NCBI RefSeq assembly: GCF_030684895.1
Contig: NZ_JAUXXP010000016.1
Location: 4,244 to 68,243, forward strand
Reading direction: 5' to 3'
Length of the DNA: 64,000 bases
Source of the DNA: Pseudomonas sp.
GTDB taxonomy: Bacteria; Pseudomonadota; Gammaproteobacteria; Pseudomonadales; Pseudomonadaceae
Every line of letters starts with the position of its first letter. Positions within the stretch are counted from its first letter, which is position 1. The notes under the pieces are model-generated. The model was not told the origin of the DNA, ran no database searches, and saw only the letters and a list, made by a program, of their open reading frames with translations. Positions 38,674 through 50,719 of the stretch are shown here, one piece after another. The position numbers were made by a program, and so were the translations under genes.

Positions 38674-38702
38674 AACGCCGGGTCAGCCCGGCGTTGTTTT
38701 TT
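38674..38702 (+). terminator. Rho-independent terminator after gatB
   Basis: AACGCCGGG-tcag-CCCGGCGTT is followed by GTTTTTT. Confidence 0.75.
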
Positions 38703-38726
38703 CCGCCGCCCCATCATGGAGCCGCC

Positions 38727-39098
38727 ATGCGCCTTCTGTTAATCGCCCTAACCAGCCTCTTGCTCAGCGCCTGCGCCAGCCAGGGCCAGGTCGACCCGCA
38801 GGGTTACCGTGCCGAAGGGCAGGCGTCCTATTACGGCGCGCGCCATCACGGCAACAAAACCGCCAGCGGTGAACGCTTCGACCAGAACGCCCTGACCGCC
38901 GCACACCGCAGCCTGCCGTTTGGCAGTCGGGTACAGGTAACCAACCTGCGCAACGACAAAACCGTGGTGGTGCGCATCAACGACCGCGGCCCCTACAGCA
39001 AGAAGCGCATCATCGACTTGTCACAAAAAGCCGCCGAGCAGCTGGATATGCTGCGCGACGGCGTAGTACCGGTGCGCGTGGAACAACTGGCCAACTGA
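38727..39098 (+). CDS. RlpA-like (DPBB domain) lipoprotein
   Basis: The ORF 38694-39098 was trimmed to the ATG at 38727. It has the lipobox LLSAC and DPBB motifs ([30 protein letters not shown]). Confidence 0.85.
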
Positions 39099-40287: not shown

Positions 40288-40358
40288 GCCTCTAGACGGG
40301 GGTTTGGCCATGACCCTCGCTGGGCGTTGTCCATAAACGCCCCAGGCGGTGATAAGCC

Positions 40359-41129
40359 TCAGGGATAGCTGAAGCTTTTGACCAAGGTCAGCTCACCTGT
40401 AGAACGCATAGGCACGATATACGACTCCTGCCGTTCGTTTATCGTGCCTTCCTGACTGATCAGGGTGATCTGCGCGGTGGTCAGTGCCGACGCGCCTGCG
40501 CCGCCGTAATAGTTCACATACACCAGGTATTGACCCGGCTGCGGCGTCGGCGAGGCGATCATCTCCGGCCCATAGCCGGTGGTCACATCAACATCCAGCG
40601 CCGCGCCGTTGGCCAGGCCCCGCTCGCCATACCAGACATGCCCGCCGTCCGGCGTAACCAGGTGCAGATCGAGGTCGGTGTTGTCCGTGTCCCATGCCAG
40701 CACCACCCGCAGCTTGGCAGGGGTCTCGCCGCTGCCCTGGTTGTAGAACTGCACACGCCGCGTTTGCTGGCCATCCGGGCTGCGCACTTCGACATTATTG
40801 CTGCCCGACGGAAATACGAACGGCCGGTCGAAACGGCCGTCCTCCTGCACTTTGAGTGGCATGCTGATGCCATTGACGATCAGCCGCGCCGGTTTTTCCG
40901 CAACCTTGGGCACGCCCTGAATGAGGCCACGGATGCGTGTCGTCTCGGCCTGATCGACCGCACTATTGACCGAAGAGGCCGGGTAATTGACCGCCTGCAT
41001 AAAATGCGCGCCTTCGGCCGAGCCCTCGCGCCAGCCAGCGCGCGGGGTATCCAAACGGATTTCGGCGGCAGCAACGAATGGCAACAGGCTGACCAGTAAC
41101 AGAGCAATTGGGGTGCGGCGAAAGATCAT
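40359..41129 (-). CDS. magF: YfaP/DUF2135-family periplasmic protein, last gene of the A2M operon (MagF-like)
   Basis: 256-aa ORF with a signal peptide. It is a clear paralog of the ORF at 49775-50563 (shared LDLHxVTPDG, GxGPEM, YLxYVNY). The symbol comes from remembered PAO1 mag operon synteny. Confidence 0.7.
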   Translation of the reverse strand: MIFRRTPIALLLVSLLPFVAAAEIRLDTPRAGWREGSAEGAHFMQAVNYPASSVNSAVDQAETTRIRGLIQGVPKVAEKPARLIVNGISMPLKVQEDGRFDRPFVFPSGSNNVEVRSPDGQQTRRVQFYNQGSGETPAKLRVVLAWDTDNTDLDLHLVTPDGGHVWYGERGLANGAALDVDVTTGYGPEMIASPTPQPGQYLVYVNYYGGAGASALTTAQITLISQEGTINERQESYIVPMRSTGELTLVKSFSYP

Positions 41130-41131
41130 GG

Positions 41132-42781
41132 CTATTCCAGCAGCAGGTGGCGGGCAAGGTGTTCTATGTAGTCTTCGTCCTGGCTATTGGGGTGCGCCTC
41201 AAAGGCCAGGTGCAGGTACTCATGAGTCAGGTCGAGGCGATCCTGCAGGGAGTACAGGCCACGGACGAAGATACGCCGCCGCTCGCGGTCGACGTAGGGG
41301 CGCCCGGAAAGCAACTGACAGACCGCAAATTGACGGGTTTCACTGTAGCCGGGCTCAGCATCGAGTCGCGTGCGCCAGGTGCGTTGCTGCGCCAACAACC
41401 AGGCTTCGGCAGCGACCAGGGGCTGGCAAGCAGCATGGGGTTTATTCCAGCGCGTCAAGCTGGCACGCGGGAAGGCACGCAGCAGAATACTGTCGTAGCG
41501 CATTCCCGCCGCAGCCTGTTCCATGGCGTGCTGCCAGGAAAGCCGATCACTGCCGGGCAGGTCGGCGTGATAATTCACCGCACTACCCGCGAGCACCAGA
41601 TCGGTAGTCCACGCGGTTACTTCACGGGCGGCGGCCGAGGCCGGCCGTGGCGCTACGCGCTGTCGGGCGCTGCTGTCGCTGATCGCCAGGCAATCGCCGC
41701 GGCGCTCGGCGCTTTGCAACAGATAGGTGCGAATAGCCACCGCCAGAGCCTTGGCCGCCTCGGCCGGTTGTGCGCTCGCCTCACGATCGAGCACCCGCGC
41801 CACGTACTCCTCGCGCGCTAACCGCGCCGTCAGTTGCGGGGCAGATGCACCGACAGCCAAAAATAACTCGCCGGAGCTGTCGACCGACAAGCGGTTGCCA
41901 TTGACGAACTGCACCTCAAATGAGCCGCGCAGGGCGCCATTGGCGGCGCGCTGGCCTGTATCGCGCTGCAGCACCGCCTGCACCGGGTAGCGGGCGAACA
42001 GCGCCACCTCGACGCAGCGCCCTTCATCCATCGAAGGGCCGTTCGGCAGCGCCGCCTCCAATGCCTCGGCATAGCGTTGGAGAACATCTTGGCTGGTGCC
42101 CGAACCGCCCACCCAGAGCGGCGTGCCGTCGACCAACCAGCCCGCGAAACCGCCCTGACGCGCACGGGTATCATGCTCAGCCAGCCAACTCCAGGTCTTC
42201 ACCCGCATGCGTGCCCCCAACACGCTGAGGGTCTTTTCCTGGGAGGGTTGCAGCAGCACGTCGAGAAGCACTTCACGTGCCTGCTGCTGGGCGGGCAACC
42301 GCGCCAAAACACTCAACAACTCGCTGACCGGCACCCTGTGTTGCGGCTCAAGGCGGGTCAAGTCTTGCAGCCATGCGGGCGCGTCATGCGCCTGCCAATA
42401 GCGCGCCCAATCCTGCGCCACCAACTGCAAACGTTGCGGGGCGAAATACAGGCCGCAGGACTGCACCAACGCCTGATCGCGCTCGATGCTCTCGCCAGAG
42501 GCGCAGCAATACAACTCGTCGCGGTTCTCGCCCTTGCACATGTAGGGCTGTTCGGGCTGCTGGTTGTCGACCAGATAGGCATAGACGAACAACTTCCACA
42601 GACTGCCCAGTGGCGCCTGCAGCTCGGCAGGCACCGCGCCGCGCGACAGCACCTGGCGTTGATCGAGTTGCAGCAGGCGTGCTTCCGGCCCGGCGCCAAG
42701 CGCCAGCTTCAGCGGCGCAGCAGGCGCAGCCAGCGGCAGGCAGGCAAGCAGCCAGCAGGCCAGGCGCACCGACTTACTCAA
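41132..42781 (-). CDS. magE: YfaQ/DUF2300-family secreted protein (MagE-like)
   Basis: The ORF-track entry runs to 43042 but overlaps magD. The likely start is TTG 42781 or GTG 42769, in front of the signal peptide [22 protein letters not shown]. The Cys-rich MCKGENRDELYCCASGE motif, a SpoIID-like block and a C-terminal HEYLH are present. Confidence 0.7.
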   Translation of the reverse strand: MSKSVRLACWLLACLPLAAPAAPLKLALGAGPEARLLQLDQRQVLSRGAVPAELQAPLGSLWKLFVYAYLVDNQQPEQPYMCKGENRDELYCCASGESIERDQALVQSCGLYFAPQRLQLVAQDWARYWQAHDAPAWLQDLTRLEPQHRVPVSELLSVLARLPAQQQAREVLLDVLLQPSQEKTLSVLGARMRVKTWSWLAEHDTRARQGGFAGWLVDGTPLWVGGSGTSQDVLQRYAEALEAALPNGPSMDEGRCVEVALFARYPVQAVLQRDTGQRAANGALRGSFEVQFVNGNRLSVDSSGELFLAVGASAPQLTARLAREEYVARVLDREASAQPAEAAKALAVAIRTYLLQSAERRGDCLAISDSSARQRVAPRPASAAAREVTAWTTDLVLAGSAVNYHADLPGSDRLSWQHAMEQAAAGMRYDSILLRAFPRASLTRWNKPHAACQPLVAAEAWLLAQQRTWRTRLDAEPGYSETRQFAVCQLLSGRPYVDRERRRIFVRGLYSLQDRLDLTHEYLHLAFEAHPNSQDEDYIEHLARHLLLE

Positions 42782-45700
42782 CCTCAAGCTCAGCCAGTGC
42801 CGGCTGGCTTTCCAGCGCCTGATCCTGTGGCGCGTACATGCGTTGATAACGCACTGGCGGCAGACTGAACTGGCCCTTCTGCGAGAAGCGCACCAGGTGA
42901 CGGAATACCTGTGTGCCTTGCAGGCTGTCGATCGGCACGGCATAGAGCAATTGACCGGGTTCGTGACGGGCCTTTTCCAGTGGTGCGGCTTCTGCGGAAC
43001 CCAAACCACTGACCTGAATACCCCAGGTGGTGCGTTCGACATCGGCGCCAGGCGGCAATGGCACTTCCAGCAGGCCGTAGCGCAGCGGGCGTTCGGCCTC
43101 AGTGTGCAGGGTCACTTCGTCGAGGTAGAGGCTGTCACTGGAAAGCGTATCGTCACCCACTTCCTCGGCGCTGAACTCGAAAGCATTCTCCCCTGGCACC
43201 AGGCGCAGCAACCGCCGGCTGACCTTGACCGGCAGGTTGCTGAGCGGCGCTTGGCTGCTGCGCAGGCTCACTGCAACTTGCAGCGATTGTGCAAGATTCT
43301 CCGGTAGATCCAGGCTGCTGGGCAGGCCTTCTCCTTGCCAATGCCAGACGCGCTCGCCACTGGTGCTTGGCTGCGCCAGCCAGCCAGCGCCCAGCTCCGG
43401 CGCGGCGAGCACTGGCACCTCCTCAATAACGCGCTTGAGCCAGGTCAACACCAGGGCCCGCTCTAGCGTCGACTGCTCCGGCGCCAGACGCTGCAGCAAG
43501 GCAACGGCGCGGGCCTGATCCGGAACAGCCAGGGTCAGCTTGATGGCTTCGGCAAATGGATGATCGCTGGCGACGAGCACACCCTCGGCCTGTTCCAGCT
43601 GCACCTTGAATGAAGGCGGCACAGCCACCTTGGCTTGATTCGCCAGGTGCGCGGTCAACACGCGGGCGATGGCTAACCCGAGGGTCGAATCTGGAGCACT
43701 CATAATCAGGCTGGCTACACCATCATCGGCAAGGGTGATAGCTTCGCCCTCCCCGGCGCGGCCAAGATCGGCGAGCAGGCCTTCGAGCAGGCTGTTCACC
43801 GGCAGCTGCATGTCACGGGCGAAGGACAGGATCAGCGCGCGCTGCAACGGCGGGGTGTTCAGCGCCTGCTTGGCATAGACCTCCAATACCCGCTGCCAAT
43901 GCTCCGCTGGCAAGGCGATATTCAGTACGCGGCTGGCATGCCAGTCGGCGTAATAGGCATAGGCCGTAAGGAAGGCATCCGCCTCGCCAGCTTCGCCCCA
44001 CCAAGTGAACGCGGCCTCCGGCCCAGCCATCTGCACCAAGCGCAGGCGGCTGTTCTGCATGATCAGGCGCAGGCGCTCGCCGATCCGCGGCTCACCCTTG
44101 GCCAGCGCCGGATAGACCAGGCTTAGCGGCAGCAGGCGACTGGCAGTCTGCTCAACGCAACCATAGGGATATTCCAGCAGCGCATCCAGGTTGTGCATAA
44201 ACAGACTTTGCACGCCGTTCTCCAGGCGCAGGCTTACCTCTGAGGCATCGGCCGGCAGGCTCAGCGGGTTGCTGCCCGCATTGGCGGTCAGGCGTTGGCT
44301 TTGCAGATCCTGCCAGCCGGCAGCGTGGGTGCGCAGGCTGACGTTCAGGGCATCGACGGTCTTACCGTCCTGTTGCAACTCGCCGCTCCATTGCGCCGCA
44401 GTGACTGCATCCTGGGCCAGCGCCACGTAGTTGATGCCTGGGGCCAGGGCCAGTTCGATGCGTTTTTCCTGCCCGGCATAACGGCTGAGCAACTCAGCCT
44501 TGGTCGCCGTCTCACCCTGGTTGAAGACGAACAAGCCCAAGGCCGGGCGGTCGCCGCTGCGAAACAGGCTTGGCCCACTCCATTTCAGGTACAGGGGTTT
44601 TTCCGAGCGGATGAACTGCTTCTTCTGGCCGACCTGGCCATCCTCGTTGACCGCACGCGCAGTGATGCGCCAGCGGGTCAGCGAATCCGGCATGCGGAAG
44701 CTGAAGCTCACCTTGCCGTCGGCACCGGTAACCAGATCCGGTTGCCAGGCAGCCGTGTCGACGTCTTCGCGGCGTGGCCGCTCCAGCACTTTGACCCCGC
44801 GCTCGCTGCGATTGGCGCGGCCGGGGGCGGTTGGCGCACCAGGCAAAGCGACGTCGTAGCTGATAAATGACAGGCTGGCGCTGGTGCGCACGTTGTTGCG
44901 CCGCGGGTGATAGAAGAACTGATCAATTCCCGGGGCGACTTCCGGTTGCAAGGCATAGATCATCTCGTCCACCACGCTGAGCGTCAGGCGCGTGGCATTG
45001 GGCTGGCCGGCAAAGCGCGTGGCGATCTCGACGGTGACAGTCTCGCCCGGCTGGTACTGCTGTTTATCGGCGACGATGTCGATCTCGATCTGTGGCTGGG
45101 AGACCTTGATCCCGGCATTCTGAAAGCTGTAATCCCCGCCCTTGGTGTAGAGCACGGAGAACGTCAGGTTAGGCGAGAAATCCGCCTTGACCGCAATTCG
45201 CGCGCGGTACTGGGTATCGTTGAGCTTTTCCAGTTCCAGCCAATCAGCGCCCTGGGACAGCAGCGCGGTGGCTTCCACCTGATCGCGCTCCAGGGTCAGC
45301 AAGGCATCGTTGATCGGTTCGGGGAAGGTGATCAGCGCCAGCGCTTCGTCGCCCGCCAGGTACTCGGGCTTGTCGAAGACGATCTCCACCGTGCCGGCCA
45401 CGGCCTTGATCCCTTCACCGCTAACCGTGTGACCGGTGGCACCGAGGATCAGGCCATGCCGGTTTTTCAGGGTAATGCTATAGGTGCCGGGCCGCTCGAA
45501 GGCAATGGTGAACCCTTTGCTCTCAGCCTCCAGGCTGGCGTCGCCCTGGCTCTGGTCTTCCAGGCGTACCCACTCGTAGCGGGCAGGCTTGAGAGTGCTC
45601 GGCTGCTCGGCGCTGTAGCCGAACGTGATGCGCTCGCCGACGCGGCTAAAGCGCTGCGCGGCTGCCAGACGATAGTGCGCGGCACCGCGCTCGATAAGGA

Positions 45701-47408
45701 TTTCCTTGCTGGTTTTGACCCGGTAAGCCGCGCCATCACTGGCGAACACGGTCAGCAGGTAACGGCTGGGTTTGTCCGCCGCCGGCAGCTCCAGGGCCGC
45801 GCGGCCCTTGCTGTCGGTACGCAGCTCGGTGCTGCTGAGCTCCACCGGGAACTGACCGAGGTATTGCAGCTCGTTGTCGATCATCGACAACTGCTGCGCG
45901 CGCAGACTGAGTTGCAGGCGCGCATCCTTGACCGGTTTACCGTCTGGATAGAGTAGCGTCAGATTGCCAGTAATCGCCTCGCCAGTACGCAGGTCGGCCT
46001 TGTCCAGATTCAATGCGATTTCAAAATGCGGCTTGATGTAGTCCGCCACGCGGAAGGCACTGCTGTAGAGCTGATCACGGTAGGCGAAGCGCAACTCGTA
46101 GCCCCCGGCCACGGCATTCTCCGGCAACTGGAAACGGCCTTGGGTGCCGGCCTTGCCATCCAACTCCAGGCGCAGGGTTTGCAACACGCTGCCGGTCGCA
46201 TCGAGAACGCTTAGCGCCACCGGGGCGTTGGTCGCGGCGACCGAATCGCGGGCATTCTTGAACTCACGCCCAACGATTTTCACCTCGACCCAATCGCCCG
46301 GCCGGTACAGCGGCCTGTCGGTAAAGGCGTAGAGCTTGGTGTCATAGATTTCGCTGTCGTAATAGAAGTTCTCGGAGACGAACACACCGCCCTCGGCATC
46401 CTCACCAAGCACATAGGAACGCTCCGGGCTGGCATGCTGCAAGCGCAACAGCCCCCGGGCATCGGTGGTGCCGCTGCTCATCACGCCCAGACCGTCACTC
46501 CACAGCACCTTGGCGCCGCTCACCGGACTGCCCTCATGCTTACGCGCGGTCCAGACCAACAACTGGCCGCCAGCGATCTTGCTCACCGCCACTGTATTGG
46601 AAACGAACACCACGGTGGTGGCGCGATATTTACCAACCAGCGCCTCGACCAGATATAAGCCCGGCTTGAGCTTGCCCAGGGGGATGTAGACATTACCCGG
46701 CATGCTGTTGACGAACTGGCTGGACGAGCCTGCCAGCTCTACGCCCTCTGGCGGGGCGATGCTCTTCGCCTCCCAGAGCGGATAGCGGAACTGACTGACC
46801 ATGGGCAGGCCAGGCATCGGCGCGTACTGCGGCTGCGCCTCGAATTCGCTGGGTGCAACGATCGCCTCGCCCATCCTCAGTTCCGGCGCTTCTTCGGTGA
46901 CTTGCCTGCGCGACTCGTAGGAGAAGGCCCGTTGCATCACCCGGCGTGATTTGCGGTACCAGTTGTCCCACAAATACGACAGGGTATTGGACAGTCCCTC
47001 ACCCTTGAACTGACCTTCGGCAACCACCCGATGCAAATTCTTCTGTCGCTTGAGAAAATCCAGCGGCTGATCAATACGGTACACCCGTACATCGACCCCG
47101 CCGTAAGGCTCCATCAGGTAGCGGCGATAATCTCGCCCCGGTGCCTCCAGTCGCACCTGGGCGGTTTCGTCGCTGGCGAAACTGCTGTCGGCAAGCAGGA
47201 AGAACGACTCACCGCTCAACGGCGTGTAGCCGCTGCTCGCTACCGAATCGTCGGCTTGCACGACGGGTACCAGCAACGCCGCGCACAGCGCCACCCCGGG
47301 CAGCCAGGTGTGGCGGCCAACGGCAATCAGCGTGCGAGAAAATGCAGCCGATAAATGCCGATAAAGTTGGGGTTGATTGCATCGGGTATCCATCGGGTGT
47401 CCTTCCAT
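42774..47408 (-). CDS. magD: Bacterial alpha-2-macroglobulin family protein (YfaS/MagD class)
   Basis: 1544-aa ORF (alternative ATG at 47393). It has a signal peptide ending VVQA/DD with no canonical lipobox, repeated MG-like beta domains, and an A2M thioester-domain block [17 protein letters not shown]. Confidence 0.9.
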
Positions 47409-47992
47409 GTCATGAGTTGTTGCACGCTGACCGCGCGCATGCCGTTGTCGGTCGGGGTGCTGGAGCCAGTGTGATAGGCAATGTCGCGGCCCATCCAGAT
47501 CATCAGGTGCTGATCGTCGCCTTGGTCGAAGAACAGCAGATCGCCGGGGCGCGCCTGGTTGAGGTCGCGGCCACCGAAGATGCTGTTGTGTTGAATAAGT
47601 TTGATCGCGTTAACGTAGGGCCCGACCTCGCCATTGCCCTGTTGCCACTGCTGCGCCAGGCGCCGCCGGGCATCACTCAGCGCCAGCTCCGGCGGTAGAT
47701 AACGGTTGGACAAGCCATTGCTGCGCAGCCACTTGGCGTCGTGCACTTTCAGCGCTTCATTGGCGGCAAAGCGCACCAGGCCCGCGCAGTCCTGCTGATG
47801 CCAGCGCGGGCTAGGCCCCTGACGCAGTTGCTCCTGGGCGATGCGCACAAACCAGGCACGAAACACCTGAGACTGCTCAGGATCGAGCGTCACCGGCGGC
47901 TCCGCTCGCAGGCCCAGGCTCGCGCACAACAGCCACAGCGCAACGCAGACTCGCCAAATGCTCACAGCGCACGCCACTCCAGAGGCAGCCAT
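47327..47992 (-). CDS. magC: DUF1175 / NlpC-P60-like protein (YfaT/MagC-like)
   Basis: 221-aa ORF. An alternative GTG start at 47965 forms a GTGA overlap with the magB stop. Motifs DCAGLVRFA and [19 protein letters not shown] resemble the NlpC/P60 Cys and His motifs. Confidence 0.75.
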
Positions 47993-49737
47993 TGCCAGGC
48001 TTCCTTGGCCTCACTGCCGGCGGGCAAGGTCAGGGCATATTTGCCGTGTCCGGCCAGGGCTTTCAGTTTGGGCAGCAGCAATGTCTGCGCGGCGTTACGA
48101 AATACCGGCTCCATGTCCGCCGGCAGGCTGTCGAAAGTCTCCTGCTCGAACAACGCCGAGAGGCTGTCCGGCGCCAGGTACGCCGGCACCAGAACGTTCT
48201 GAGGCAGCACGTCGGCGAGTGGCGGGAAGCGTTTGTCGAGGGTGCTGAGCGCCTTGTCGACCAGCCGATCGTCCAGAGAAAAAAGCAGCGTCGAACCATG
48301 TCGGGCCATGCTTACCCGGAAAAAGCCGCGCGCCGCCATAGCCTCGGGTTGCTGGGCATCGCTGGCAGGATAAGGGCCAAAGTTGGAACTCACCTCACGG
48401 CGCCAGGTTCGCTGTTCACCCAGGCTTTGTGCGATCACGGGGAAGCTGCCCTCCGCCGTATTGGCCTCCCAGGCACCGATCAGCGAGCCGAATAGCGTGC
48501 CCATCTGCTGATCCAATTCGGCGCTGGGCGGCGCACTCAGCAGACCGACCAGCAACGGCGAATGCAACCGCGATTCGGCGTACCAGCAGAGCCCGGCCGC
48601 GCCGCTGAGCTGAGCAGTGAGTGCCTTGGCCACCGCCTCCTCAGTGCCCACCTTGCTCAACAGGCGCTCGGATACTCCCCCTGCCACCGGCAGCGCCACA
48701 CAGGCGCTGGCGCCCATCGGCATGGCCCGCCATACCGGGGCGAAATCCAGCGTCGGCTGATCGTCGGCTTCGTTAAGCGCCAGGTAGCTGCGCCAGCCGC
48801 CGGCGTCCATCTCGAAGCGCACGCCGGCGAATGCCGGAATGAAGCGCTGATAGCCAAGGGCAAGGAAGCTCGACGCCAGCGTAATGCGTTGCTCCAGTTG
48901 TTCACGCGCCGGCAAGCCGAATCGCTCCGGGAAGGGTTGCCCACCCTCCAGCAGCGCCGCAACTGTGTGCGCCGACACCCTGGCCAGCGCCGGCGAGGCC
49001 GGCTCCAGCATCGGCGCCTCGGCGTCGACTGACGGGGCCTCGTCTATCTCTACGGCACTGGCAACATACTCGGACTCGGGCGCCAGGAGCATGTCAGCGC
49101 TCGATAGCAGGAGCAACTGATCGCCATAAGAGACGAACAACAGCGAGCGATGACTGTTGTAGCGCAGGCTATAGAACGGCACGACTTCATCATTGACCAG
49201 CAACTCACCGGCCTGGCTAAGCTGCTGGTCGTCCAGCGCCACCTTGGCCAGAGGCTCCAGCACCTTGGCCAGGCCGCCGCGCTGAATACGCACCAGGAAA
49301 TGCTTGAGCTTGCCACTGGCATCGCGCCACATGGCAACATCGGCGGGCTGGTCGAGCAGCTCGTCGAGCAGACTATCGCGCAGCTGCAGGTCATGTTCGA
49401 AGATGATCCTGCGCAGGCTGCCGGCCAAACCGAGTCGATCGGCATTGCCCTCGTAATAGAACACCAGGTCTTCGGTCAGGGTGTCGCGCAGCAGCGGCAC
49501 GGCCAGCAGATCCCTGGGCAGACGGCTCAGGGAGCTGCTTTCGATCAGCACGTCCGGGCGCGCCATATCCAGCCCGAGGACGTTTTTCTCGGCCAGCTCC
49601 GGGCCGCTTCGTATGGCCTGGAACCAGCCAAACAGTCCGGCCGCGACTATCGGCACAGCCAGGGCAAGGCCGATAAGCAGCGGGCGCAGGCGCCGAACAG
49701 ACGCGCTGGCGCTGGCGGGTGTGGTGTTGTCACTCAT
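47962..49737 (-). CDS. magB: YfaA/DUF2138-family protein with an N-terminal TM anchor (MagB-like)
   Basis: 591-aa ORF with the TM helix [19 protein letters not shown]. The family assignment comes from operon position and size, not from a recognised motif. Confidence 0.65.
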
Positions 49738-49774
49738 GTATGGAAACCCCAGTTCTTCCCTGCTGTGGGAGCAC

Positions 49775-50563
49775 TCAATAGTTGAAAGACTTGATCAGTA
49801 GCAGATCGCCGATAGTGCGCAGCGGCACGACGAAGGTCTCGCGCTTTTCATTGACGGTGTTTTCGTTGAAGACCAGGTTGATCTGCGCGGTGATCACCTC
49901 GTTCTGATTGCTACCAGCCTGGAAGTTGTAACCCTGGCTGTTCAGGTTGCCCCAGTAGTTGACGTAAATCAGGTAGGTACCGTGCAATGGCGCGCTCATG
50001 GTAAACATCTCCGGGCCCGGGCCATCGACGCTGTCGACGTCCAACCCACCCCCATTGCTCAGCACCGGGCGGGCCCAGAACGCATGCTGGCCATCCGGAG
50101 TCACCACATGCAGGTCGAGTTCGGCCTTGGGATCGTCCCAACCCAGGGCAATCCGCACCCGCGCCGGGGTTTTGCTCAGGTTGGCTTCGTAAAACTGCAC
50201 GCGTTTGAGCCGCTGGCCTTCGGCACTGACCAGCTCGACGCTGTTCGAGCCAGCGCCAAAGTTGTAGGGACGAGCAAAGCGACCTTCGGCATCGGTATAA
50301 AGAGGCAGGGGGTTGCCGTTGACCACCAGGCGGTGCGGCGTACGCTCTGCGGCAAGGTCTTTCAGCTTGCCTTCGATCATGCTGCGGCTGCGCTGGCCAC
50401 CGCGATCAATCGGCGGCGTTGGATACGCCACGCGCGGCGTTTGCATGTCATTGAGCAAGCCGGAATAGCGCCAGCCGGCAGTCGGTCCATCCAGGCTCAT
50501 CGCCGGTTCGGCCTGCAGTCCAGTCGCCAGCAACAGGCCGAGACACACGTAAACACCGCGCAT
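49775..50563 (-). CDS. magA: YfaP/DUF2135-family periplasmic protein, first gene of the A2M operon (MagA-like)
   Basis: 262-aa ORF with a signal peptide (LLLATGLQA/EP) and the SD AAGGA. It is a paralog of 40359-41129. Confidence 0.7.
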   Translation of the reverse strand: MRGVYVCLGLLLATGLQAEPAMSLDGPTAGWRYSGLLNDMQTPRVAYPTPPIDRGGQRSRSMIEGKLKDLAAERTPHRLVVNGNPLPLYTDAEGRFARPYNFGAGSNSVELVSAEGQRLKRVQFYEANLSKTPARVRIALGWDDPKAELDLHVVTPDGQHAFWARPVLSNGGGLDVDSVDGPGPEMFTMSAPLHGTYLIYVNYWGNLNSQGYNFQAGSNQNEVITAQINLVFNENTVNEKRETFVVPLRTIGDLLLIKSFNY

Positions 50564-50719
50564 GCTTAATCCTTTAAAACGGGTGCGAGGGGACGCAAAT
50601 TAAAGACTTGCAAGCGAACTGACAATCTCCACCGGGTCTCGGTGACGAGGTTTCCGGCATCCATCACACTTTACTCGGCTGGTGGGGCAGCTCCAGCAGA
50701 TGCAGCCTTGTCGCACGAC

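Follow-up and report, generated by a model that had tools for sequence, protein, structure and literature searches.

The six-gene cluster examined here, part of the window (the whole stretch of 64,000 nucleotides of Pseudomonas sp. DNA that was analyzed), is by its sequence the Pseudomonas magABCDEF operon, a clear ortholog of magABCDEF from P. aeruginosa. Its host lineage is environmental Pseudomonas, alcaligenes/Aquipseudomonas-like. The mag system is already known, and the one mechanistically useful difference is that MagD, its alpha-2-macroglobulin (A2M), has a thioester motif here. This motif is the most interesting property of the locus and was absent from a preliminary description of the cluster. 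We consider it quite likely that the operon specifies a periplasmic defense complex with a thioester-bearing MagD. Our own results concern gene content, orthology, the presence and homology of motifs, the covariation of Met and Cys, and the fold of MagE.

The genes and their export or membrane signals are as follows:

49775..50563, minus strand: magA, secreted DUF2135 protein, 262 aa
50510-50563, minus strand: Sec-type signal peptide of MagA, MRGVYVCLGLLLATGLQA
47962..49737, minus strand: magB, DUF2138 protein, 591 aa (Pfam DUF2138, E 2.6e-221; NCBIfam PRK11410)
49621-49689, minus strand: single N-terminal transmembrane helix of MagB, aa 17-39
47327..47965, minus strand: magC, DUF1175 / NlpC-P60-fold protein, 212 aa from GTG 47965; the longest ORF starts at ATG 47992
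42774..47393, minus strand: magD, alpha-2-macroglobulin, 1539 aa from ATG 47393
41132..42769, minus strand: magE, 545 aa from GTG 42769 (alternative TTG 42781, 549 aa), signal peptide at the N-terminus
40359..41129, minus strand: magF, second secreted DUF2135 protein, 256 aa
41067-41129, minus strand: signal peptide of MagF

The ORF listing contains six minus-strand ORFs (49775-50563, 47962-49737, 47327-47992, 42774-47408, 41132-43042, and 40359-41129), exactly where the preliminary description had put six genes. Their sizes include 262, 591, 221, 1544, and 256 aa, of which 221 and 1544 are for the longest ORFs, as are the coordinates 41132-43042. Pfam recovered every predicted family far above the curated cut-off, in the order DUF2135, DUF2138, DUF1175/NlpC-P60, A2M, DUF2300 plus SpoIID, and DUF2135, and NCBIfam and Pfam place all six proteins in the expected families. 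The profile check proposed earlier for A2M, DUF2135, DUF2138, DUF1175, and DUF2300 thus found them all, and both Pfam and the comparison of loci agree with the earlier reading of a Mag/YfaS-type A2M operon with peptidoglycan-enzyme-like partners. The DUF2135 scores of the MagA and MagF proteins were 59.8 and 55.1 bits, and the two are 41% identical to each other; MagB scored 736 bits for DUF2138; MagC scored 204 bits for DUF1175 (E 3.6e-60), with a weak NlpC_P60 match; and MagD has the domains MG2, A2M, A2M_BRD, and bMG10.

The order A-B-C-D-E-F is found in each of the 78 Pseudomonas loci that span the operon as far as magF, and two more contigs, which stop inside the operon, are colinear for their extent. 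This shared order and the orthology bear out the earlier equation with P. aeruginosa magABCDEF. MagA is 69-85% identical to the product of the operon's first gene in all the Pseudomonas loci compared, and MagA-type orthologs occur in betaproteobacterial operons too (51-58% identity). On one side the operon is flanked by gatA and gatB and on the other by a RoxR/RoxS-like two-component pair; synteny with roxSR and gatB is kept in the closest relatives. The placement between gatCAB and roxSR in the preliminary description therefore named the right flanks, but they are not immediate: gatB is separated from magF by genes for an RlpA-like DPBB protein and a Na/Ca exchanger, and magA from roxR by one for an AEC-family transporter.

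The junctions depend on the start codons. A 37-nt gap between magA and magB and a 2-nt gap between magE and magF were found, as previously described. The described GTGA overlap of magB and magC holds for GTG 47965, which gives a 212-aa MagC, equal in length to the MagC chain in PDB; the 221 aa given with it belongs to the upstream ATG 47992, which would overlap magB by 31 nt. The 67-82-nt overlap of magC and magD reflects two magD starts, ATG 47393 (67 nt) or ATG 47408 (82 nt). The 1539-aa start is the publicly annotated one (P0001), and a Citrobacter ortholog is annotated with the same 67-nt overlap. The 8-nt overlap of magD and magE, with a MagE of ~549 aa, arises only with TTG 42781; the gene callers' choice is GTG 42769, which gives a 4-nt gap and 545 aa (P0271, 100% identical). 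Judged by these tight or overlapping junctions, the mag genes are probably co-transcribed.

Upstream of magA lie two candidate elements:

50564..50625, minus strand: candidate promoter and leader of magA (TTGTCA at 50620-50625, 17 nt, TAATTT at 50597-50602, then AAAGGATTAAGC ATG)
50570-50573, minus strand: ribosome-binding site of magA, AGGA within the leader

Upstream of magA, related Pseudomonas loci share this layout and the AAAGGATTAAnCATG block. A consensus promoter scan made no call upstream of magA, and the leader has no significant RNA structure; we infer that TTGTCA-17 nt-TAATTT may be the magA promoter. A consensus terminator scan found none after magF and five terminator-like matches elsewhere, which is fewer than chance.

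MagD matches the public protein P0001 (1539 aa, “alpha-2-macroglobulin [Pseudomonas sp.]”) at 100% identity and fluorescens-group MagD at ~70%. Two of its features concern the thioester:

44148..44171, minus strand: thioester motif YPYGCVEQ of MagD (Cys1079 and Gln1082 in 1539-aa numbering, Cys codon TGC, pocket tyrosines at -4 and -2)
42828..42842, minus strand: RMYAP of MagD, C-terminal MG domain, with a Met-Tyr pair corresponding to the one in SMYVPQ of ECAM

YPYGCVEQ aligns residue for residue with YPYGCLEQ of ECAM (Cys1187) and with CGEQ of CD109. In type I bacterial A2Ms a Met-Tyr pair shields the thioester, and the pocket residues have been defined (PMC4498604); all four (Tyr -4, Tyr -2, and the Met-Tyr of the C-terminal MG domain) are in MagD. 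Cys1079 is the sole Cys after the signal peptide, as is the case in most homologs. The thioester Cys is present in 17 of 78 Pseudomonas species loci, in 26 of 31 distant metagenomic operons, and in 98 of 120 betaproteobacterial homologs. Among type II proteins, Cys and the pocket Met occur together in 155 and are both missing from 164, with 8 having just the Cys and 8 just the Met (counts not corrected for phylogeny), and the trend also appears at the level of clusters. Where the Cys is lost, the Met gives way to V, L, I, or S; as an exception, Leu takes this position in some Cys-bearing proteins of the citronellolis group. Recent papers define the “type II” A2M class as thioester-less, although a 2012 paper implied that some members retain the motif. 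A MagD with an intact thioester motif contradicts the current definition. The type II members that we sampled seem mostly to keep the Cys, and the thioester-less proteins of P. aeruginosa and E. coli look like exceptions.

CxEQ and the pocket residues alone are not proof that a thioester forms. CVEQ could be a silent relic, with no thioester or an irrelevant one, and MagD could trap targets non-covalently within a MagA/MagB/MagF complex as in P. aeruginosa, whose MagD entraps protease without a thioester (PMC5764988). Many lineages have Gly, Ser, or Phe in place of the Cys and still retain the operon, as a relic would allow, so at least part of the function does not need the thioester; the YPYG-VEQT remainder is conserved even without the Cys, which suggests a structural role apart from thioester chemistry. 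However, the Cys is kept across homologs that are 41-51% identical, mostly as the only mature Cys; a free thiol would face the thiol-oxidizing system of the periplasm; and the shielding Met is kept or lost together with the Cys, which is hard to explain without a role for the thioester. We consider a relic unlikely and lean toward a functional thioester.

Under the defense explanation, the operon would encode an inner-membrane-tethered surveillance complex. MagD (~165 kDa) would be exported via a Sec signal peptide and kept at the inner membrane by MagB, a single-pass membrane protein. The DUF2135 paralogs MagA and MagF would bind MagD, and MagC (NlpC/P60 fold) would bind peptidoglycan. MagE would be secreted, with three modules (PBP/beta-lactamase-like, SpoIID-like, and HExxH), and may act on peptidoglycan. 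By analogy with P. aeruginosa, the complex would guard the envelope against foreign periplasmic enzymes, notably peptidoglycan-targeting T6SS effectors, by bait-triggered trapping, probably plus wall binding or repair. The window's MagD is expected to have an internal thioester (Cys1079-Gln1082) and, after activation, to attach covalently to its target, like type I A2Ms.

Complex assembly, localization, GacA control, and T6SS protection come from the literature on orthologs, and functional claims for this operon are carried over from P. aeruginosa MagD (~70% identity) or from E. coli. P. aeruginosa MagD is periplasmic and associated with the inner membrane through MagB (PMC3735191; PMC5764988). 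MagA, MagB, and MagF each bind MagD 1:1, and MagB anchors and stabilizes it (PMC5764988, 2018; PMC3735191). The operon is part of the GacA regulon and came up as a hit in a T6SS-resistance CRISPRi screen (PMC12663445, 2025); deletion of magD causes sensitivity to the peptidoglycan-targeting effectors VgrG3 and Tae1 (PMC12663445). VgrG3 is lysozyme-like whereas MagD is a protease trap, and this mismatch counts against trapping as the explanation. Given these papers, the 2025 work on YfaQ (bioRxiv 10.1101/2025.02.11.637708), and the MagC structure 7bk8, the preliminary description was out of date in stating that only MagD and MagC had been studied and that the trigger and the other roles were obscure, and in calling the system largely unexplained it overstated the gap.

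The canonical lipobox is absent from the MagD signal peptide (aa 30-47), and anchoring would therefore be via MagB rather than a lipid. The AlphaFold2 model of MagB (pLDDT 88.7, pTM 0.85) has a helix at 18-40, and a fold search against PDB gave no significant match; Cys346 and Cys384 are invariant. Its presumed role as the anchor of the complex is carried over from PMC5764988. MagC and MagE have features of peptidoglycan enzymes:

47774-47791 (DCAGLV), 47495-47512 (QHLMIW), and 47465-47476 (YHTG), minus strand: NlpC/P60 triad positions Cys, His, and His of MagC
42593-42604 (SLWK) and 42191-42199 (KTW), minus strand: PBP/beta-lactamase-fold motifs of MagE
41777-41788, minus strand: DREA in the SpoIID-like module of MagE, candidate catalytic Glu
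41210-41224, minus strand: C-terminal HEYLH of MagE (HExxH)

MagC is near-identical to “MagC” in PDB 7bk8 (E 1.6e-118), and its triad residues are at least 97% conserved among 152 family members. MagE matched DUF2300 (237 bits, two matches) and SpoIID (28.1 bits versus a cut-off of 23), and a profile alignment to SpoIID 4rwr puts its Glu on the Glu of VVASEM. MagE models as a PBP/beta-lactamase fold: a Foldseek search with the AlphaFold2 model (pLDDT 82.5) gave 239 matches at E <= 1e-3, including PBP transpeptidase domains and beta-lactamases of classes A and D (E about 2e-6, probability 1.0). SxxK, KT, the Glu, and HExxH are invariant (57-111 homologs). An active MagE and an inactive one seem about equally plausible. 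For E. coli YfaQ (MagE), a 2025 study gave an independent model and a phenotype: yfaQ mutants have wider cells and cluster phenotypically with peptidoglycan and envelope mutants (bioRxiv 10.1101/2025.02.11.637708). A study of PAO1 located MagE in the cytoplasm (PMC3735191), which fits badly with a periplasmic enzyme.

These modules of MagE, the conserved triad of MagC, and the yfaQ phenotype also favor an operon mainly for cell-wall remodeling or repair, with MagE and MagC as effectors, MagD as a scaffold or regulator, and T6SS sensitivity arising indirectly via an altered sacculus. Mutation of magD improves growth in chlorhexidine (PMC12663445), and type I A2Ms, too, have a cell-wall partner in PBP1c, as this explanation would suggest. 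But MagD still has a bait-region domain and a complete MG architecture, along with the thioester motif in the protein studied here; it traps protease in vitro (PMC5764988); PAO1 protection is specific to certain effectors rather than general (PMC12663445); and MagC homologs, according to a summary in PMC10318531, are inactive peptidoglycan binders without hydrolase activity, the conserved triad notwithstanding. We find this explanation quite unlikely. The original proposal for bacterial A2Ms, a colonization factor against host proteases such as neutrophil elastase, draws on the finding that human neutrophil elastase alters the conformation of MagD (PMC3735191) and on reportedly reduced virulence of magD mutants in a chronic infection model (as cited in PMC5764988). 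It seems very unlikely here: environmental Pseudomonas, soil Oxalobacteraceae, and metagenomes are the sources of the operon and its closest relatives, and periplasmic MagD is reachable only once the outer membrane is breached.

Compared with known systems, type I A2Ms encoded with pbpC (E. coli ECAM/YfhM and Salmonella SaA2M) share with MagD the CxEQ, the flanking YPYG and QTAS, and the four pocket residues, as well as the bait-region and MG-domain architecture and a partnership with peptidoglycan enzymes. In contrast, MagD has only 22% identity to ECAM, is ~110 residues shorter, and lacks a lipobox, and its locus has five dedicated partner genes instead of an adjacent pbpC. E. coli yfaA-yfaT-yfaS-yfaQ-yfaP has orthologs of the B-C-D-E-F core in genes that overlap or abut (45-67% identity for the partners, 54% for the A2M), and a Citrobacter plasmid locus has the same order. 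E. coli has no leading DUF2135 gene (magA), consistent with the earlier statement that an extra yfaP paralog leads here, and in YfaS the motif is gone entirely (EPWGGVINT), along with the pocket Met (RSYAP).

Betaproteobacterial YfaS-type operons (Duganella, Massilia, Janthinobacterium, Thauera, and Azonexus), for which we found no experimental studies in the literature, encode an A2M that has the thioester, only one mature Cys, and the pocket Met; its identity to MagD is 41-51% over the thioester-domain fragment and about 41-51% over the whole protein. Their DUF2138, DUF1175, and DUF2300 partners are ordered as in the window's operon, but both DUF2135 paralogs are in tandem after magE rather than one at each end.

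P. aeruginosa PAO1 magABCDEF (PA4492-PA4487), a “type II” A2M complex, has all six families in this order, a like neighborhood (gatCAB side and roxSR side), and a crystallized MagC near-identical to ours; the AEC transporter, Na/Ca exchanger, and RlpA-like genes are extra in the window. The aeruginosa-type Cys-free cluster (P0047) has ~70% identity to the window's MagD. PAO1 MagD traps protease non-covalently and has no cysteine at all, with YPYGGVEQ and a non-Met pocket residue, versus YPYGCVEQ and RMYAP here, so covalent trapping would be expected here and not in PAO1.

The locus consists of six consecutive open reading frames on the minus strand, and the open reading frame listing places them at exactly the coordinates in the preliminary description. 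With the corrected starts of magC, magD, and magE (see below), they are:

49775–50563, minus strand: magA, DUF2135 protein
47962–49737, minus strand: magB, DUF2138 protein
47327–47965, minus strand: magC, DUF1175 protein
42774–47393, minus strand: magD, alpha-2-macroglobulin (A2M)
41132–42769, minus strand: magE, DUF2300 and SpoIID protein
40359–41129, minus strand: magF, second DUF2135 protein

Profile searches with Pfam and NCBIfam recovered all of the expected families for the six proteins, in the transcription order DUF2135, DUF2138, DUF1175, A2M, DUF2300 with SpoIID, and DUF2135. MagB also matches the NCBIfam equivalog PRK11410, and MagC has a weak NlpC/P60 match besides DUF1175. In MagD, the Pfam models MG2 (82.6 bits), A2M (70.9), A2M_BRD (55.2), and bMG10 (32.2) all exceed their cut-offs. 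Families, gene order, and orthology agree, and the earlier identification as a Mag/YfaS-type (type II) A2M operon was correct: the locus is a further member of the known Mag system, orthologous to the studied operon.

The close packing that had been described is confirmed by direct reading of the junctions, with small corrections to the starts of magC, magD, and magE. There is a 37-nt gap between magA and magB and a 2-nt gap between magE and magF. The magB/magC junction is a GTGA start/stop overlap, which makes MagC 212 amino acids long, versus 221 for the longest open reading frame. The magD/magE junction is either an 8-nt overlap (TTG start, 549 amino acids) or a 4-nt gap (GTG start, 545 amino acids, which is the choice in public gene calls). 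Finally, magC and magD overlap by 67 nt from the annotated ATG at 47393, or by 82 nt from an upstream ATG. The 67-nt overlap is out-of-frame (window 47327–47393) and is annotated likewise in the orthologue from a Citrobacter plasmid (locus L002, 12240–12306); the N-terminal residues of MagD (M-D/A-T-...-Q-x-Q) recur in betaproteobacterial operons. Such a long and widely conserved overlap suggests translational coupling. We also noticed a 2034-aa open reading frame in a Logan assembly (public protein P0106) that is a MagD–MagE fusion, with A2M domains followed by SpoIID and DUF2300. One indel or an assembly error could be enough to produce it, given the 4–8 nt junction here, or it could be a natural fusion.

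We infer co-transcription of magA through magF from the tight and overlapping junctions only. Relatives have in common a TTGTCA-17 nt-TAnnnT layout ahead of magA, and a conserved block (AAAGGATTAA, also given as AAAGGATTAAnCATG) covers the ribosome-binding site; the magA leader carries AAAGGAUUAA, and transcription is predicted to start near 50590. A consensus promoter scan called no promoter anywhere in the operon region, including upstream of magA, and the fold of the magA leader RNA (z-score 0.35) showed no significant structure and gave no support for an RsmA hairpin. A terminator scan found none 3' of magF, and its five terminator-like matches elsewhere are fewer than expected by chance. 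Between magF and the Na/Ca exchanger gene, which are convergent, window 40320–40345 contains an imperfect inverted repeat (CTGGGGCGTT ... AACGCCCAG), 14 nt past the magF stop; this repeat lacks a T-run and was not called by the terminator scan.

On one flank of the operon, the window contains yhdP, mreB and mreC, gatA, gatB, an RlpA-like DPBB gene, and the Na/Ca exchanger gene, and on the other flank an AEC-family transporter gene and a RoxR/RoxS-like pair. The closest relatives keep these flanks (roxS-roxR-AEC transporter on one side and Na/Ca exchanger-RlpA-like gene-gatB on the other). The small RlpA-like gene (38694–39098, plus strand; lytic transglycosylase fold), between gatB and the mag operon, keeps its position in most relatives from the aeruginosa lineage. 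This adds a further cell-wall gene to the neighbourhood, but one that is transcribed from the other strand and is unlikely to be related to the mag operon. In the window, magA is separated from the AEC transporter gene by just 156 nt. In the close relative Aquipseudomonas alcaligenes NBRC 14159 (L010:394-8950), and in two other loci of close relatives (L007 and L011), a type I A2M and pbpC are inserted at this point on the opposite strand, so that they lie beside the mag operon. The type I A2M of NBRC 14159 is a 1966-aa open reading frame with bMG3, MG2, bMG5, bait-region, and bMG10 domains, and its pbpC encodes Transgly, Transpeptidase, and BiPBP_C domains.

To survey the operon, species-representative genomes were scanned with a MagB alignment, which gave 80 loci, all from Pseudomonas. 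The order magA-B-C-D-E-F holds in all 78 loci that reach through magF, and the contigs of the other two stop inside the operon. Two loci in assemblies labelled Gordonia sp. IEGM753 (L033) and Janthinobacterium sp. (L056) hold a fluorescens-type Pseudomonas mag operon, with the layout and identities of true Pseudomonas loci; these assemblies are probably contaminated or mislabelled. For wider diversity, we scanned metagenomes with distant MagB sequences as the query. The order B-C-D-E-F is also found in E. coli, on the Citrobacter plasmid, and in distant metagenomic loci. E. coli and the Citrobacter plasmid have yfaA-yfaT-A2M-yfaQ-yfaP without the leading DUF2135 gene, and in a third layout, from the metagenome scan, both DUF2135 paralogues stand in tandem after magE. 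In metagenomic operons, MagA-type proteins are 51–58% identical to the MagA of the window and MagF-type proteins are 39–45% identical to it, so the duplication of the DUF2135 gene is old. Pseudomonas shifted one copy to the front, and the enterics lost it.

The preliminary description called the function of this system largely unexplained, which is out of date: its role and regulatory input have been published, and its molecular mechanism has not. In P. aeruginosa, MagD is periplasmic, is cleaved, is associated with the inner membrane via MagB, and co-purifies with MagA, MagB, and MagF, and its synthesis is under RetS/RsmA control (PMC3735191). MagD binds MagA, MagB, and MagF, each at 1:1; it depends on MagB for its stability and traps a protease non-covalently (PMC5764988). 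[quoted passage not shown] A search of the PADLOC models for anti-phage defence gave no match to any of the six proteins.

A public protein from a metagenome-assembled Pseudomonas genome matches the MagD of the window at 100% identity. Identity is 72–81% with the proteins from Aquipseudomonas, P. alcaligenes, P. citronellolis, and P. knackmussii, and about 70% with those of the fluorescens group. The window MagD has a signal peptide without an L-x-[GAS]-C lipobox, as read by eye at the N-terminus. Type II, operon-encoded A2Ms were defined in 2013, 2018, and 2025 papers as being without a CxEQ thioester (PMC3735191, PMC5764988, PMC12663445), and according to the 2013 paper they lack cysteine altogether (PMC3735191). 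Where this definition expects no CxEQ, the window MagD carries CVEQ (Cys1079 to Gln1082). The stretch aligns residue for residue with KAYPYGCLEQTASGLFP of ECAM (the type I A2M of E. coli) and with the CGEQ of human CD109, and the residue of ECAM that aligns to Cys1079 is the thioester-forming Cys1187. Cys1079 is the only cysteine in MagD besides two in the N-terminal leader and signal peptide. At the same position, E. coli YfaS has EPWGGVINT, a Citrobacter protein has QPYGGVINT, and a cysteine-free cluster of MagD proteins (P0047; 4290 member sequences, probably P. aeruginosa) has YPYGGVEQT.

How common is the cysteine? Among the 78 Pseudomonas species loci, 17 have GCVEQ, 60 have glycine, and one (P. 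schmalbachii) has a cysteine shifted by one residue. Members of the P. schmalbachii clade (L014, P0018, and P0051) have YPYCGVEQ, with the cysteine one residue earlier than in YPYGCVEQ, and leucine in place of the pocket methionine described below. In distant metagenomic operons, GC[VIT]EQ is present in 26 of 31, in thioester-domain fragments that are 41–51% identical to that of the window. A search seeded with one distant metagenomic MagD gave 120 betaproteobacterial homologues (from Duganella, Massilia, Janthinobacterium, Pseudoduganella, Leeia, Azonexus, and Thauera), of which 98 have GCxEQ and 88 have exactly one cysteine beyond residue 60. A sequencing error as the source of CVEQ is ruled out, as the motif is common to dozens of independent genomes. 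A neighbour-joining tree of Pseudomonas sequences only is ambiguous as to the direction of the change. A recent regain of the cysteine within Pseudomonas is disfavoured by its predominance in distant betaproteobacterial and metagenomic operons. Because of this wider sampling, and because the motif is universal in the superfamily, it is more likely that the cysteine was retained, with repeated loss to glycine, serine, or phenylalanine.

We therefore treat the absence of CxEQ as a property of two model organisms and not of the family, since most of the sampled members keep the motif; the locus is assigned to its class by orthology and operon context, and not to type II in the sense of lacking a thioester. 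An older description is consistent with this: a 2012 paper, quoting a survey from 2004, describes a second class of A2Ms without CxEQ "in many species" (PMC3328433). That wording says many and not all, which limits the novelty of a thioester-bearing type II protein. We did not find experimental work on such a member in the literature.

The pocket around the thioester offers a second, independent line of evidence. In type I bacterial A2Ms, two tyrosines of the thioester domain, at -4 and -2, shield the bond, and the C-terminal MG domain contributes Met-Tyr to complete the pocket (PMC4498604). The window MagD has both pocket tyrosines, and its RMYAPQ near the C-terminus, which contains the pocket methionine Met1519, aligns with SMYVPQ of ECAM. 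PAO1 MagD has leucine at the pocket methionine position. We then compared the thioester cysteine and the pocket methionine across 341 non-identical type II sequences.

Thioester cysteine and pocket methionine in type II A2Ms (numbers of sequences, from the set of 341, uncorrected for phylogeny)
Cysteine present: methionine present in 155, absent in 8
Cysteine absent: methionine present in 8, absent in 164

Because these counts ignore phylogeny, a Fisher P value for the association is not meaningful as such. When the sequences were clustered at 25% distance, 53 clusters had both cysteine and methionine, about ten lacked the cysteine and had valine, leucine, serine, or threonine at the methionine position, and a few were mixed. 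The pattern does recur in separate clades, and we read it as evidence that the thioester is probably functional where the cysteine is present.

Among the partners of MagD, MagB has a confident AlphaFold2 model (pLDDT 88.7, pTM 0.85) with an N-terminal transmembrane helix (residues 18–40), the predicted membrane anchor. Cys346 and Cys384 of MagB are invariant across its family and probably form a periplasmic disulfide. Against the PDB, the MagB model had no significant match (the best was the Treponema lipoprotein TP0453, with E = 5e-3 and a low TM-score), so we propose no fold-based function. MagC is near-identical to the MagC structure 7bk8 (E = 1.6e-118). DUF1175 has been summarised as an inactive peptidoglycan binder (PMC10318531); at least 97% of 152 homologues have the same NlpC/P60 residues as MagC, namely Cys, His, and His. 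A DUF2135 profile gave only chance antibody matches in the PDB, leaving MagA and MagF without a detectable solved relative, and searches of the PDB with the single sequences of MagB, MagE, and MagA gave no match.

In the numbering of the 545-aa protein, the MagE family is invariant at Ser56-x-x-Lys59, Ser104-Cys-Gly, Lys191-Thr192, Glu330, an Asp-Ser-Ser-x-x-Gln-Arg-Val motif, and His516-Glu-x-x-His520 followed by Asp531, Glu532, and Glu536, and the homologues that share these invariant motifs are only 43–70% identical. The AlphaFold2 model, for which the input alignment was made from the search matches, has a mean pLDDT of 82.5 and a pTM of 0.49, so the packing of the domains is uncertain. 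In the model, Ser56 starts a helix (55–68) and Lys191-Thr192-Trp193 lie on a strand (188–197). Foldseek matched the first ~260 residues to class A and class D beta-lactamases and to the transpeptidase domains of penicillin-binding proteins (PBPs) with probability 1.0; there were 239 PDB matches with E <= 1e-3, and all of the 50 matches listed are beta-lactamases or PBPs. The N-terminal domain is thus predicted to have a PBP or serine beta-lactamase-like fold with the SxxK and K-T motifs. The third motif of this fold, SxN, is uncertain, and SCG at 104–106 is a candidate for it.

The middle of MagE matches SpoIID in Pfam (28.1 bits versus a cut-off of 23), and the EEYVARVLDREA segment of the family profile aligns marginally to the SpoIID structure 4rwr (E = 0.018). 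This alignment places the invariant Glu330 (in DREA) on the glutamate of VVASEM, which we take to be the catalytic residue of SpoIID. The Pfam model of DUF2300 matches MagE once inside the PBP-like domain and once at the C-terminal end, so an internal duplication may have occurred. HExxH is found only in the C-terminal copy (41210–41224), followed by the conserved Asp, Glu, and Glu, and may be a metallopeptidase-like site; Pfam reports only DUF2300 for the isolated tail, and we found no description of this site in the literature. Together, the motifs, the predicted fold, and the SpoIID alignment make MagE a plausible multi-module peptidoglycan enzyme. In PAO1 (the P. aeruginosa reference), MagE was detected only in the cytoplasm, which argues against a periplasmic role (PMC3735191). 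In E. coli, yfaQ mutants are wider and their phenotypes cluster with those of peptidoglycan and envelope mutants, and YfaQ was modelled as transpeptidase-like and SpoIID-like (bioRxiv 10.1101/2025.02.11.637708).

How might these proteins act together? If the findings from orthologues carry over, MagD would assemble with MagA, MagB, and MagF at the inner membrane, under Gac/Rsm control, and would trap its target when the bait is triggered, with protection against peptidoglycan-targeting T6SS effectors as the outcome. Activation would expose the Cys1079–Gln1082 thioester, so that MagD would be covalently joined to the target, while MagC and MagE would link the complex to the sacculus and might also repair it. 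We consider less likely than not the joint reading that the thioester is ancestral and prevailing in the mag/yfa macroglobulins, with PAO1 MagD and E. coli YfaS as degenerate exceptions, and that a covalent MagD works with active repair by MagE. Were it true, MagD would attach covalently either to an incoming effector or protease or to the peptidoglycan itself, through amine groups; MagE would be an active wall enzyme (PBP-like, SpoIID-like, and HExxH) that repairs damage; and the Mag system would be a covalent "tag-and-repair" module of envelope immunity. A thioester-bearing MagD would then also be a ready tool for finding natural targets by covalent capture.

The operon alone adds little; it is of value chiefly as a representative of the thioester-bearing majority in a class that has been called thioester-less. 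Among the sampled sequences, this locus and its many relatives indicate that the thioester, with the pocket that protects it, is retained in most of the class, so the mechanism inferred from P. aeruginosa may not be general. Recent work asks how thioester-less type II A2Ms function and what they trap. A thioester-competent MagD would cross-link to its activator, and the enzymes captured during a T6SS attack would be accessible by mass spectrometry. The PBP-like, SpoIID-like, and HExxH residues of MagE are concrete sites for mutation in examining the long-proposed link between macroglobulins and cell-wall repair.

Compared with the type I A2Ms ECAM and SaA2M (from Salmonella), the window MagD likewise has CxEQ with the Tyr-x-Tyr and Met-Tyr pocket. 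The type I proteins have a lipobox and an adjacent pbpC, whereas MagD has no lipobox and there is no pbpC anywhere in the neighbourhood within the window. That MagD is a type I A2M that replaced the original gene is ruled out by its identity, which is about 70% to MagD orthologues over the full length and 22% to ECAM. As a type I A2M and pbpC adjoin the mag operon in A. alcaligenes, the two A2M systems are distinct. A peptidoglycan enzyme such as MagE beside MagD would resemble the arrangement in type I A2Ms, which are paired with PBP1c.
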